Origin: a virus
Taxonomy: Duplodnaviria; Heunggongvirae; Uroviricota; Caudoviricetes
Reading direction: 5' to 3' (one strand)
Length of the DNA: 15,582 bases
IMG/VR virus record: IMGVR_UViG_3300029888_000066
Numbering within the stretch: the stretch's first letter is position 1; the number at the start of each line of letters is the position of its first letter. Below are positions 2,944 to 11,334 of the stretch, piece by piece. A program made the position numbers and the translations under genes. The notes under the pieces are model-generated. The model was given only the letters and a program-made list of their open reading frames with translations, searched no databases and was not told the DNA's origin.

Positions 2944-3448
2944 ACAGGCTCGTGAGGCTCTGGATGCCTGGATATGTCGACCAGGAATGACACAGGAGCA
3001 GGCGACGATATTAATCACTGAAGCATTCTGGGCTTTGAAAGAGCGCCCGAACATCGATGTTCAGCGTGTCACATATGAAGGTGGCGCGATTGATCAGCGA
3101 GCGCTTGGCGTTAATCGAGTGAAGATATTTGAACGCTGGAAGGCTATCGACACCAGGGATAAGCGTGAAAAGTTCACGGCGCTAGTGCCTGCAATTATGG
3201 AGGCTATCCGGATTAATGATTTCAGGTTGTATCGTAAAATTACTGACGGAAAAAGCATCACGTGCATGATCGCCGGGTTAAACAAAGAATATGGCGATGT
3301 GGTGGAGTCCGGACTGCTTTTTGCTGATCCTGCCGTAGTGGATCGTGAAACTGACGAACTTATAGAAAAAGCAATTGCTTTCAAACTTGCGTATCGACAG
3401 CAATACCAACAAAAAGCTGGATGGAATTATGAGCCTTCTTTTTGCTGA
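2927..3448 (+). CDS. Hypothetical 173-aa protein in the position after cro (possible CII-like or YdaT-like regulator)
   Basis: ATG inside the last codons of dicC (coupled arrangement); product begins MKITPEQAREALDAWICRPG; functional call is by position only. Confidence 0.55.
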   Translation: MKITPEQAREALDAWICRPGMTQEQATILITEAFWALKERPNIDVQRVTYEGGAIDQRALGVNRVKIFERWKAIDTRDKREKFTALVPAIMEAIRINDFRLYRKITDGKSITCMIAGLNKEYGDVVESGLLFADPAVVDRETDELIEKAIAFKLAYRQQYQQKAGWNYEPSFC

Positions 3449-8351: not shown

Positions 8352-8379
8352 AACCCGCTTCGGCGGGTTTTTGTTTTTA
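8352..8379 (+). terminator. Intrinsic terminator after hokD
   Basis: ACCCGC-TTCG-GCGGGT hairpin followed by TTTTTGTTTTTATTTT. Confidence 0.7.
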
Positions 8380-8499
8380 TTTTCAACGCGTTTGAAGTTC
8401 TGGACGGTGCCGGAATAGAATCAAAAATACTTAAGTAGCGCGCAGGGATAAGAGGGATGGTCCCTTAAAGGGGAGAGCTAATTATCCGGAAGGATTCTG

Positions 8500-8751
8500 A
8501 TGATGAACATCGAAGAACTGCGTAAAATTTTTTGTGAAGATGGCCTCTATGCTGTGTGCGTTGAAAATGGAAATCTTGTTAGTCATTACCGCATTATGTG
8601 TTTGCGAAAGAATGGGGCTGCGTTAATTAATTTTGTGGATGCTCGGGTCACGGACGGATTTATCTTGCGCGAAGGTGAGTTTGTCACTTCATTACAGGCA
8701 TTGAAAGAGATCGGAATAAAAGCTGGCTTTTCTGCTTTTTCAGGAGAATAA
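8500..8751 (+). CDS. rem: Rem, small prophage protein, 83 aa
   Basis: Matches the 83-aa length and position of Rem in Qin-type prophages; MMNIEELRKIFCEDGLYAVCVENGNLVSHYRIMCLRKNG; GGAAGGA Shine-Dalgarno upstream; possible promoter TTGAAG at about 8391. Confidence 0.7.
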   Translation: MMNIEELRKIFCEDGLYAVCVENGNLVSHYRIMCLRKNGAALINFVDARVTDGFILREGEFVTSLQALKEIGIKAGFSAFSGE

Positions 8752-8817
8752 ACTCATCTACAATCTTGCGCGGGGCTGAACTCCCGCTGAGTAACACCGT
8801 GCCACCGGAGAAAACCG

Positions 8818-9096
8818 ATGGCACGCAACGCAAAATATTACAATTCTGATAATTCGCCCGTTCTTGCCTGCACGCACGGGCGGTATTCTCACGCATTCAA
8901 GTCTGAATGGTTCCAGCACCCTCCATGCACTGCAGAACAGGCCGAATGGCTGATTCATTCTTACCGCAGGCGCGGGTTCGAGGTTAAGAAAGCTCTCAGT
9001 CTCGACTATCGGCACTGGATAATCTCTGTCAGGCTGCCTTATTCCGAACGCCCACCACGTGCGTCCCGCACTTTCCAGCAACGGATCTGGAGGTAA
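8818..9096 (+). CDS. Hypothetical Cys/His-rich 92-aa protein, translationally coupled to ydfU
   Basis: GGAG 7 nt upstream of ATG; stop TAA sits inside the GGAGGTAAcGTG junction that starts ydfU; MARNAKYYNSDNSPVLACTHGRYSHAFKSEWFQHPPCTAEQAEWLIH. Confidence 0.5.
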   Translation: MARNAKYYNSDNSPVLACTHGRYSHAFKSEWFQHPPCTAEQAEWLIHSYRRRGFEVKKALSLDYRHWIISVRLPYSERPPRASRTFQQRIWR

Positions 9097-9097
9097 C

Positions 9098-10147
9098 GTG
9101 CGGGTATTACTTAGACCTGTTCTGGTGCCTGAGCTTGGGCTGGTGGTCCTTAAGCCGGGCCGTGAATCCATACAGATATTTCATAATCCTCGAGTGCTGG
9201 TGGAACCGGAACCAAAAAGCATGCGTAATCTGCCATCCGGAGTCGTTCCTGCCGTTCGCCAGCCGCTGGCGGAAGACAAAACATTGCTGCCGTTTTTTAG
9301 TAACGAACGGGTGATTCGTGCTGCTGGCGGCGTTGGCGCATTGTCCGACTGGCTATTACGTCATGTTACATCCTGCCAGTGGCCTAATGGCGATTACCAT
9401 CACACTGAAACAGTCATTCACCGTTATGGTACCGGCGCAATGGTGTTGTGCTGGCACTGCGACAACCAACTGCGTGACCAGACATCGGAATCACTGGAGC
9501 TGCTTGCTCAACAAAATCTGACAGCATGGGTGATTGACGTCATCCGTCACGCAATAAGCGGTACGCAGGAGCGGGAATTATCTTTGGCTGAATTATCCTG
9601 GTGGGCGGTCTGCAATCAGGTGGTGGATGCACTACCTGAGGCTGTATCGCGTCGTTCGCTGGGATTACCAGCGGAAAAAATCTGCTCGGTGTACCGCGAA
9701 AGCGACATCGTACCGGGAGAGCAGACCGCCACCAGCATATTGAAACAACGCACAAAAAATCTTGCACCGTTGCCTTACGCCCACCAGCAACAAAAATCAC
9801 CACAGGAAAAGACGGTGGTAAGCATCACCGTTGATCCAGAGTCTCCGGAATCTTTCATGAAGCTGCCTAAACGTCGCCGCTGGGTTAAGGAGAAATACAC
9901 ACGTTGGGTTAAGACACAGCCGTGTGCTTGCTGCGGTATGCCAGCCGACGATCCGCATCATCTGATTGGTCACGGGCAGGGCGGAATGGGAACAAAAGCA
10001 CATGATCTCTTTGTGTTGCCTTTGTGCAGAAAGCATCACAACGAGCTGCATACGGATACAGTGGCATTTGAAGATAAGTATGGCTCCCAACTGGAGCTGA
10101 TATTTCGTTTTATCGATCGCGCGCTGGCAATTGGCGTACTGGCGTAA
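9098..10147 (+). CDS. ydfU: YdfU-like prophage protein, 349 aa, C-terminal Cys/His (HNH-like) motif
   Basis: GTG start 4-5 nt after GGAGG; 349 aa, as I recall for YdfU; C-terminus KTQPCACCGMPADDPHHLIGHGQGG...LCRKHHNELH; the longer ORF from 9059 is an upstream extension. Confidence 0.7.
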   Translation: MRVLLRPVLVPELGLVVLKPGRESIQIFHNPRVLVEPEPKSMRNLPSGVVPAVRQPLAEDKTLLPFFSNERVIRAAGGVGALSDWLLRHVTSCQWPNGDYHHTETVIHRYGTGAMVLCWHCDNQLRDQTSESLELLAQQNLTAWVIDVIRHAISGTQERELSLAELSWWAVCNQVVDALPEAVSRRSLGLPAEKICSVYRESDIVPGEQTATSILKQRTKNLAPLPYAHQQQKSPQEKTVVSITVDPESPESFMKLPKRRRWVKEKYTRWVKTQPCACCGMPADDPHHLIGHGQGGMGTKAHDLFVLPLCRKHHNELHTDTVAFEDKYGSQLELIFRFIDRALAIGVLA

Positions 10148-10160
10148 GTGGAGAACGAGC

Positions 10161-10913
10161 ATGAACCTTGAAGCCTTACCAAAATATTACTCCCCAAAAT
10201 CTCCAAAATTGAGCGATGACGCTCCAGCGACAGGCACCGGTTGTTTAACAATTACGGATGTAATGGCAGCGCAGGGGATGGTGCAGTCGAAAGCACCACT
10301 TGGGTTGGCCTTATTTCTGGCAAAAGTTGGTGTTCAGGACCCTCAGTTTGCGATTGAAGGCCTGCTAAATTACGCGATGGCACTGGATAACCCGACATTG
10401 AACAAATTGAGTGAAGAAATCCGGTTACAGATTATTCCTTACCTCGTGAGTTTTGCCTTTGCTGATTACTCCAGGTCTGCGGCAAGTAAGGCTCGCTGTG
10501 AGCATTGTTCAGGTACGGGATTTTATAATGTATTGCGCGAAGTGGTGAAACACTACAGACGCGGGGAATCTGTAATCAAGGAAGAATGGGTGAAGGAACT
10601 ATGTCAGCATTGCCATGGTAAGGGCGAAGCCAGCACAGCGTGCAGAGGGTGTAAGGGTAAAGGGATTGTTCTGGATGAAAAAAGAACCCGGTTTCATGGC
10701 GTACCGGTATATAAGATTTGTGGGCGTTGTAATGGAAACCGGTTTAGTCGTTTACCGACCACGCTGGCACGACGTCATGTCCAGAAGCTGGTACCAGACC
10801 TGACCGATTATCAGTGGTATAAGGGGTATGCGGACGTCATTGGTAAACTGGTAACAAAGTGCTGGCAGGAAGAAGCATACGCGGAAGCGCAATTGAGGAA
10901 GGTGACGAGATAA
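10161..10913 (+). CDS. quuQ: Late-gene antiterminator Q homologue, 250 aa
   Basis: MNLEALPKYYSPKSPKLSDDAPATGTGC... with a CxxC...CxxC zinc-binding region (CEHCSGTG, CQHCHGKG, CRGCKGKG); start chosen at the MNLEALP methionine; the track ORF 10131 start overlaps ydfU. Confidence 0.85.
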   Translation: MNLEALPKYYSPKSPKLSDDAPATGTGCLTITDVMAAQGMVQSKAPLGLALFLAKVGVQDPQFAIEGLLNYAMALDNPTLNKLSEEIRLQIIPYLVSFAFADYSRSAASKARCEHCSGTGFYNVLREVVKHYRRGESVIKEEWVKELCQHCHGKGEASTACRGCKGKGIVLDEKRTRFHGVPVYKICGRCNGNRFSRLPTTLARRHVQKLVPDLTDYQWYKGYADVIGKLVTKCWQEEAYAEAQLRKVTR

Positions 10914-11049: not shown

Positions 11050-11334
11050 AAATGGGGCAATGGTAATGTTGAATCTCATCCCGGGACTCATGTCTGTTAA
11101 CTTATTATTTAGCTGGTGACTTGGTTATTTGCCTGATGTTTAAAATGTTTTCTTCCAGTACAATGTCCCTAAACACAATGAGTCTGCTTATTATATTATT
11201 AGCAGAGCTATTACGGCCAAAGTACAGCATAAGCTTTTAAAGCCAATCAACCAGTCATCAAGACAGACGGGGTTATTCATAAAAACTCTCCATGTGTGAT
11301 CCGATGGGGCCTGAAATTAAAGCTTTAATATAGC

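Follow-up and report, generated by a model that had tools for sequence, protein, structure and literature searches.

What is encoded between rem and ydfU in the Qin prophage, and is its product a partner of the nuclease gene that follows? The stretch of DNA that we analyzed (IMG/VR virus record IMGVR_UViG_3300029888_000066; 15,582 nucleotides, hereafter the window) is the Qin cryptic prophage of Escherichia coli K-12 in reverse-strand orientation (K-12 coordinate = 1653402 - p for window position p), and its positions 8700-10200 are 100% identical to K-12 derivatives. The original prediction, made from the sequence alone, had pointed to a Cys/His-rich open reading frame (ORF) of 92 codons that would be co-translated with ydfU, and had speculated that the two proteins form a unit of a nuclease and its partner. 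We find that this ORF is a genuine coding gene under purifying selection, that its 3′ end forms a conserved junction with the next gene, and that the place of ydfU is taken by other nucleases in related loci. The small gene and ydfU are probably an ordinary, tightly packed gene pair of the lambdoid nin region, in which a fixed slot and junction stand before interchangeable nucleases, and the tie of the small protein to YdfU is at most lineage-specific. The elements concerned are the following.

8818-9096, + strand: 92-codon gene (PHROG 1212 family; RefSeq WP_012304870.1), ATG at 8818, TAA at 9094-9096, product of 92 amino acids (aa).
8807-8810, + strand: GGAG, Shine-Dalgarno sequence of the small gene, 7 nt 5′ of the ATG, read directly from the sequence.
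9089-9100, + strand: coupling junction GGAGG-TAA-C-GTG, with GGAGG at 9089-9093, TAA at 9094-9096, C at 9097 and GTG at 9098-9100.
9098-10147, + strand: ydfU (b1560), 349 aa, a DUF968 protein with a C-terminal HNH nuclease domain, annotated GTG start.

In the curated MG1655 record NC_000913.3, nothing is annotated between rem (b1561) and ydfU (b1560), which agrees with the original prediction for K-12, but the NCBI pipeline PGAP does call a hypothetical protein here, WP_012304870.1: it is annotated in JM109, in all other E. coli records that we inspected, and likewise in other K-12 derivatives and thousands of E. coli genomes. In UniRef the product is named “Prophage protein,” and the identical sequence is present on at least 1000 public contigs. 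The good Shine-Dalgarno sequence that had been noted is present, and it is weaker in diverged copies, e.g., AGCAGAGA. Since no in-frame ATG, GTG or TTG occurs between codon 1 and the conserved core that begins at codon 27, the ATG at 8818 must be the start.

The reading frame is intact in 95 of the 95 related loci scored. Over 13 copies with a synonymous divergence of up to ~0.75 from the window copy, the pooled ratio of nonsynonymous to synonymous polymorphism (pN/pS) is 0.26 and the median ratio of nonsynonymous to synonymous substitution (dN/dS) is 0.20, pN/pS falling to 0.13 in the core (residues 27-92). In a six-frame control with the 11 gapless diverged copies, no frame but the annotated one is open in every copy. 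The other five frames have pN/pS values of 0.36-1.53, four of them at 1.19-1.53; the fifth, at 0.36, lies on the opposite strand, where it shares wobble positions with the gene, and contains stop codons in 11 of 11 copies. Variable sites number 20, 22 and 49 at codon positions 1, 2 and 3, respectively, such that 49 of 91 fall at the third position. We give next to no credence to the alternative that this is a chance ORF, or the shadow of a 137-codon antisense ORF that spans the whole small gene (8758-9171, - strand). The curated MG1655 annotation, which lacks the gene, and the greater length of the opposite-strand ORF would both fit such an explanation, but the antisense frame is open in only 1 of the 11 diverged copies, with a pN/pS of 1.19, against 11 of 11 and 0.26 for the sense frame, and homologues of the 92-codon ORF occur in other genera. 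The antisense ORF is thus spurious. The most curated bacterial genome record, MG1655 (NC_000913.3), therefore misses a gene found in the large majority of complete E. coli genomes; this annotation gap is the one useful result of the analysis, and closing it is a routine annotation fix.

The small protein matches phrog_1212, a family annotated as of unknown function, with an E value of 1.7e-35, its residues 27-92 aligning to profile positions 1-66 of 66, while no Pfam or NCBIfam model matches it (Pfam: none at E<=1). The family is a narrow one: among 1.84 billion representative proteins, an exhaustive HMMER search gave 60 clusters at E<=1e-3, and a search of phage genomes gave 59 records, whose hosts are all Enterobacterales and which include Gifsy-2, mEp237, PY54, phiES15 and N15-like phages. 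It is recognizable across genera at 35-50% identity. The majority of members are 66 aa long and start with MKxxWF, which corresponds to residues 27-32 of the Qin protein. As most members start at the equivalent of residue 27, residues 1-26 of the E. coli form make up an extension, carried by the Qin-type copies and lacking in most other PHROG 1212 members. The protein is thus divided into two parts.

8818-8895, + strand: N-terminal extension, codons 1-26, specific to E. coli Qin-type copies (pN/pS 0.75, pLDDT ~49).
8896-9096, + strand: conserved core, codons 27-92, made of a beta-alpha-beta-beta mini-domain (residues 28-75) and a conserved tail.

The extension shows 2-codon indels among E. coli copies, is nearly unconstrained, as its pN/pS indicates, and is predicted to be disordered. 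The idea that it is the remnant of the DUF1367 gene found upstream of the family in other loci was rejected, no similarity being found at the protein or DNA level. For the core, an AlphaFold2 (AF2) model built from a 38-sequence alignment places strands at residues 28-33, 56-60 and 67-75 and a helix at 39-52, with block-mean pLDDT values of 92-96 over residues 31-70 and a less ordered tail. Y49 is the only residue invariant in the family; F32, L45, L60, D63, L73, P74 and W91 are nearly invariant. The tail that follows the mini-domain, LPxSxxPPRPSRxxQQRxW(R/G), is proline-rich and basic, and its terminal Trp is almost invariant. The predicted fold gives no functional lead: a Foldseek search of the viral models in BFVD returned phage N15 Orf QD1 as its sole match, whose annotation carries no function, the family sequence profile matched no PDB sequence below an E value of 0.25, and neither fold nor motif matches supported DNA or protein binding.

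In two phage records (ON470583.1, our locus L087, positions 3001-3279, and ON470612.1), the label “toxin to Rem” is given to the homologue of the 92-aa ORF. We found no basis for this label; there is no rem directly upstream in that phage, and PADLOC and NCBIfam gave no toxin match.

The positions of the Cys and His residues listed by the original prediction are correct in both proteins, and the small protein indeed has C18, H20, H25, C37 and H47, to which H34 and H66 can be added. The Cys/His-rich reading of the protein is nonetheless not supported. C18, H20, H25 and H47 vary even among E. coli copies, the first three falling inside the extension that most relatives lack, and C37 and H34 are not conserved family-wide, being replaced by M, L, V or I and by Q or Y, respectively. 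A zinc finger, which requires a set of four conserved Cys/His ligands, was therefore rejected as a reading of the small protein; because these residues are not conserved, a zinc site is unlikely, and the alignments indicate no conserved metal site.

We then turn to the junction with the next gene. The stop codon of the small gene is embedded in the ribosome-binding site and start of ydfU, in agreement with the original prediction: the last two sense codons (TGG AGG) are the ribosome-binding site of ydfU, and the stop lies 1 nt before the ydfU start. The junction TGGAGGTAA(C/T)GTG is retained in 13 of 13 diverged E. coli copies. Its layout is moreover common to all classes of downstream gene, with ...TGG-GGG-TGA or ...TGG-AGG-TAA followed 1-2 nt on by ATG or GTG, and the Klebsiella-type junction, TGGAGGGATTGATG, has a 1-nt overlap. 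A stop codon near the downstream start and a downstream Shine-Dalgarno sequence inside the upstream coding sequence, by which a coupled pair is recognized, are both present, and the near-invariant terminal Trp codon and the Gly or Arg codon after it would thus double as the ribosome-binding site of the next gene. With this arrangement, the small gene and ydfU would be co-translated. The part of the original prediction that proposed translational coupling with ydfU is supported by the junction, but the coupling would be a general property of the slot, to judge from the layout common to all classes, and not special to YdfU.

Fusion of the small gene with the nuclease gene by programmed frameshifting is unlikely and was rejected on the geometry of the junctions: relative to the small gene, the nuclease is in frame +1 in Qin but -1 in the RusA, NinG and YbcO classes, and no slippery site is shared.

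The same junction raises the question of whether the ORF is mainly a translational leader, kept in order to deliver ribosomes to a poorly initiating (GTG) nuclease gene, with a peptide of little function. The junction is the most constant feature family-wide, GTG starts are frequent among the downstream genes, and the N-terminal extension is nearly neutral, all of which such a leader would explain. We nevertheless judge it very unlikely, given the strong protein-level purifying selection on the core with synonymous changes throughout, the confidence with which the core is predicted to fold, and the level of identity kept across genera, as a pure leader would not hold its amino-acid sequence so well. 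Within the tail itself pN/pS is 0.09 with synonymous changes present, and the peptide motif is kept whichever gene follows; by these measures, the protein-level constraint on the tail is real.

To place the small gene among its neighbors, we surveyed 226 loci that carry a family member, drawn from IMG/VR, GTDB genomes, GenBank phages and E. coli genomes. The genes found on its two sides were as follows.

Downstream, YdfU-type DUF968: 90 loci.
Downstream, RusA: 84 loci.
Downstream, NinG/Rap: 32 loci.
Downstream, YbcO or YbcO-like HNH: 14 loci.
Downstream, other or none called: 6 loci.
Upstream, DUF1367 (phrog_319, “NinB/Orf homologous recombination mediator”): 105 loci.
Upstream, Rem, in Qin-type copies only: 81 loci.

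Among the six other cases on the downstream side are a Q antiterminator, an exoribonuclease-like gene, one gene of an unknown family and two short ORFs, and at one locus no downstream ORF was called; the two short ORFs are picks of the neighbor-calling script, and at one of these loci (L095) PGAP has a DUF968 gene directly downstream. The numbers of distinct small-protein cores in the DUF968, RusA, NinG and YbcO-type classes are 19, 60, 27 and 13, respectively. In most relatives (including loci L083 and L084 and ~100 more) the small gene sits between the DUF1367 gene and the junction nuclease.

These neighbors bear directly on the proposal of a dedicated two-protein unit, in which the small protein would serve YdfU alone, as its subunit, inhibitor or specificity factor, and would be kept in fixed proportion to it by the coupling. 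In E. coli the pair does behave as one mosaic block, where homology typically runs from 17-33 nt 5′ of the small-gene ATG to the ydfU stop or to a point inside ydfU, with flanks that vary (rem, hokD, an insertion sequence (IS) element or a helix-turn-helix (HTH) gene upstream; ydfT or RusA downstream). The DUF968-linked small proteins also form deep clades of their own. Against these stand the unrelated genes in front of which the same family is found: it also precedes the unrelated RusA fold, NinG and YbcO-type nucleases, and small proteins with identical 66-residue cores, in a DUF1367-linked clade, precede either RusA or a YbcO-like HNH gene, such that there is no strict two-way co-occurrence. 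Between E. coli and Klebsiella, the DUF968-linked small proteins share only 41% identity, which is no more than either shares with other classes. Conversely, in E. coli prophages a YdfU orthologue of full length (329 aa, 57% identical, same PHROGs) comes directly after a KilA-N gene, no frame within 2.5 kb encoding a member of the family, and this form is very common, one cluster alone having 9520 members. PADLOC, finally, matched none of the small protein, YdfU and Rem to a defense system, and membership in a defense or toxin-antitoxin system was set aside on the same searches. As originally stated, the dedicated unit does not hold, and we regard it as distinctly unlikely.

A natural fusion of the two proteins served as a stand-in for a co-fold. 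In P0174 (an NCBI record of 438 aa from one contig), full-length YdfU is preceded in frame by residues 1-89 of the small protein, with the junction ...QQR-MRVLL; the fusion is a 13-nt deletion or an annotation artefact. It was modeled as a single chain with AF2, after both halves had been checked as correctly placed in the alignment, and it is a weak test. The model has a pTM of 0.37; the small domain stayed confident, while neither the tail nor the YdfU N terminus gained in confidence, the pLDDT of the tail going from ~56-74 to ~47 and YdfU residues 1-55 lying below 50, and it thus gave no sign of docking.

In two E. coli prophages with the KilA-N form (L309 and L310), the nin layout is LexA-like, RusA, KilA-N, DUF968 and Q, the YdfU orthologue starting 7 nt after KilA-N. 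The last 310-370 nt of this orthologue are 87-89% identical to ydfU, which indicates recombination inside the nuclease gene, between the N-terminal and HNH parts.

Several observations nevertheless weigh against the ordinary gene pair that we prefer. The pair is together in 90 of 90 E. coli-type loci, and in a search seeded from the DUF968 side, with a Klebsiella orthologue 50% identical to YdfU, the small gene was directly upstream in 80 of 80 Klebsiella-type loci. The small proteins of the DUF968-linked lineages are at most 56% identical to those of any other class, and a lineage-specific functional tie to YdfU is possible. The locus counts are inflated by near-identical prophages. The tail overlaps the ribosome-binding site of the next gene, which means that part of its conservation could be at the RNA level, and synonymous divergence is 0.275 in the tail vs. 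0.405 in the rest of the core. The coupling itself is inferred from junction geometry alone.

The position of the family suggests a further explanation, according to which the small protein is a third component of a recombination module, bridging or regulating the NinB/Orf-like mediator and the junction nuclease, or recruiting both to a host factor via its Trp tail. In 105 loci the small gene is flanked by DUF1367 (phrog_319) and the nuclease, the most frequent spacings being -7 to +2 nt; Gram-positive phages have proteins in which a NinB-like domain is joined to an HNH domain of this type (DUF968 proteins, PMC4118853; Gp16, PMC12817073); and the tail motif is conserved regardless of the gene that follows. 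This support is purely positional, however, in nin regions that are tightly packed mosaics where adjacency is a weak sign of interaction; the Qin-type copies have no NinB-like neighbor, and binding of DNA or protein finds no support in the fold and motif searches described above. We hold this explanation to be unlikely, although it deserves some weight. The broader claim that PHROG 1212 is a general small adaptor of lambdoid recombination modules, made in step with the nuclease (RusA, Rap, YbcO or YdfU), which it would link to the NinB/Orf-like mediator, and perhaps also to a protein of the host, via the ...QQRxW tail, is doubtful, and we would give it a small chance. If it were true, the interchangeable nucleases would share one overlooked dedicated regulator, and K-12 would carry an unannotated gene for it.

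Based on these results, we propose that the small gene is a genuine lambdoid nin-region gene of the PHROG 1212 family, which is nearly confined to Enterobacterales phages and prophages. Its product would be a compact beta-alpha-beta-beta domain followed by a proline-rich, basic tail with an almost invariant Trp, and would not bind zinc. The gene would occupy a fixed slot directly 5′ of the junction or recombination nuclease of the phage, be it RusA, NinG/Rap, a YbcO-type HNH or, in Qin, the YdfU-type DUF968 protein, a slot that in most relatives appears directly 3′ of the NinB/Orf-like recombination mediator (DUF1367). The last two codons of the small gene and its stop make up the ribosome-binding site for the nuclease, whose translation is therefore most likely carried out by ribosomes that terminate on the small gene and reinitiate 1-2 nt further on. 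We infer that the small protein has its role somewhere in recombination or DNA processing of the phage, and not as a subunit specific to YdfU. The family would thus mark a fixed slot and junction behind which lambdoid phages swap unrelated junction nucleases, by mosaic exchange at a gene boundary, and one small protein facing four types of nuclease offers a handle on whether nin-region genes work as a complex.

Turning to the downstream gene, the original prediction had seen an HNH-like arrangement in the YdfU C terminus, and this is borne out by profiles, conservation and model. YdfU matches Pfam DUF968 (PF06147) over residues 160-346 with 256.8 bits (cut-off 27.8) and, over its full length, phrog_96, “HNH endonuclease,” with an E value of 2.8e-171; sub-threshold Pfam matches are HNHc_6 and RecA_dep_nuc, the latter with 17.8 bits (E 0.004) against a cut-off of 26.9. 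Two Cys/His-containing regions can be distinguished.

9884-10147, + strand: HNH (His-Me finger) domain, YdfU residues 263-349, with CxxC, DDxHH, CxxH and H motifs.
9374-9475, + strand: second conserved Cys/His cluster, YdfU residues 93-126, with C93, H101, C118 and C121 invariant in 41 orthologues.

The C terminus reads C276-x-x-C279 ... H287 H288 ... H292 ... C310-x-x-H313 H314 ... H318, and C276, C279, D284, D285, H287, H288, C310, H314 and H318 are invariant in the 41 orthologues (50-90% identity). The AF2 model has a beta-beta-alpha element at residues 285-319; the HNH fold is thus present, and YdfU belongs to a known type of HNH nuclease, with a predicted nuclease activity. The HNH domain of YdfU has already been described and is not new: YdfU and YbcO (PDB 3g27) have been placed in group 7 of the His-Me finger superfamily, with RusA and Q as typical neighbors (Jablonska et al. 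2017, PMC5714182). The second cluster, with the motif CQWP(H/N)xxYHH...CWHCDN, lies inside a beta-beta-alpha element confidently predicted by AF2 and resembles a second HNH-like or zinc module. As a second HNH domain it was rejected, with an hhalign probability of 0.8% against the C-terminal HNH domain and no match among PDB sequences.

The surroundings of the pair are those of a lambdoid prophage, the + strand order being relB, relE, hokD, rem, the 92-codon ORF, ydfU and ydfT/quuQ.

8500-8751, + strand: rem (context), the usual but not constant upstream neighbor in Qin-type prophages.
10161-10913, + strand: ydfT (quuQ), Q antiterminator (context), Pfam Antiterm 181 bits.

The Q antiterminator downstream marks the region as the distal nin end of the lambdoid early-right operon, immediately 5′ of Q. 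In ~90 E. coli-type loci rem is upstream 81 times, and hokD, an IS element or an HTH gene in the remainder, while RusA replaces ydfT as the gene 3′ of ydfU in other copies. The sole PHROG match of Rem is PHROG 340 (annotated as of unknown function); its score against the NCBIfam SocB toxin model, 14.9 bits with a cut-off of 210, is far sub-threshold and probably noise. Immediately 3′ of hokD there is a strong terminator-like hairpin (8352-8369, + strand), AACCCGC-TTCG-GCGGGTT with a T-run after it. Promoter-like sites were seen at 8392-8421, 5′ of rem, and at 8737-8764, 5′ of the small gene, in a number not above that of shuffled sequence. The PGAP annotation of JM109 also has a 29-aa hypothetical protein, WP_120795389.1, between ydfT and cspF (~11191-11280, - strand).

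Compared with known systems, the Qin ORF is a direct member of PHROG 1212, together with Gifsy-2 STM1021.1n, mEp237 gp051, PY54 ORF47 and phiES15 gp17, and has the same position in the nin region. NinE of lambda and DLP12 (Pfam PF05322) occupies the same slot, between an Orf-family gene and the YbcO/RusA nucleases: the order ybcN-ninE-ybcO-rusA-ylcG-quuD of DLP12 is mirrored by phiES15, where YbcN, the small gene, HNH, RusA and Q follow one another. Both proteins are small with a basic, Trp-containing C terminus, but homology was rejected, with no Pfam hit at E<=1 and an hhalign probability of 0.1% against DLP12 NinE, and the PHROG 1212 family is a positional analogue of NinE only. As for the nuclease, YbcO (DUF968/DUF1364 group) is a bare HNH domain, whereas YdfU has ~260 extra N-terminal residues that include the second Cys/His cluster. 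The closest solved relative of YdfU by fold is the RecA-dependent nuclease Ref of phage P1 (PDB 3plw), the N-terminal part of which is a disordered basic segment (PMC3973344, PMC4330346), unlike the different domain found in YdfU. The HNH domain of Gp16 from the Staphylococcus aureus phage phiNM1 aligns to that of YdfU with an hhalign probability of 94.7%; Gp16 matches Pfam HNHc_6 and passes the DUF968 threshold. A recent study (PMC12817073) showed that Gp16 is a RecA-dependent nuclease whose N-terminal domain is NinB-like, where YdfU again has a different one, and neither Ref nor Gp16 is described as requiring a small partner protein. This resemblance to RecA-dependent nucleases, seen in the fold and profile of the HNH domain, points to an activity that could be tested for this uncharacterized K-12 gene.

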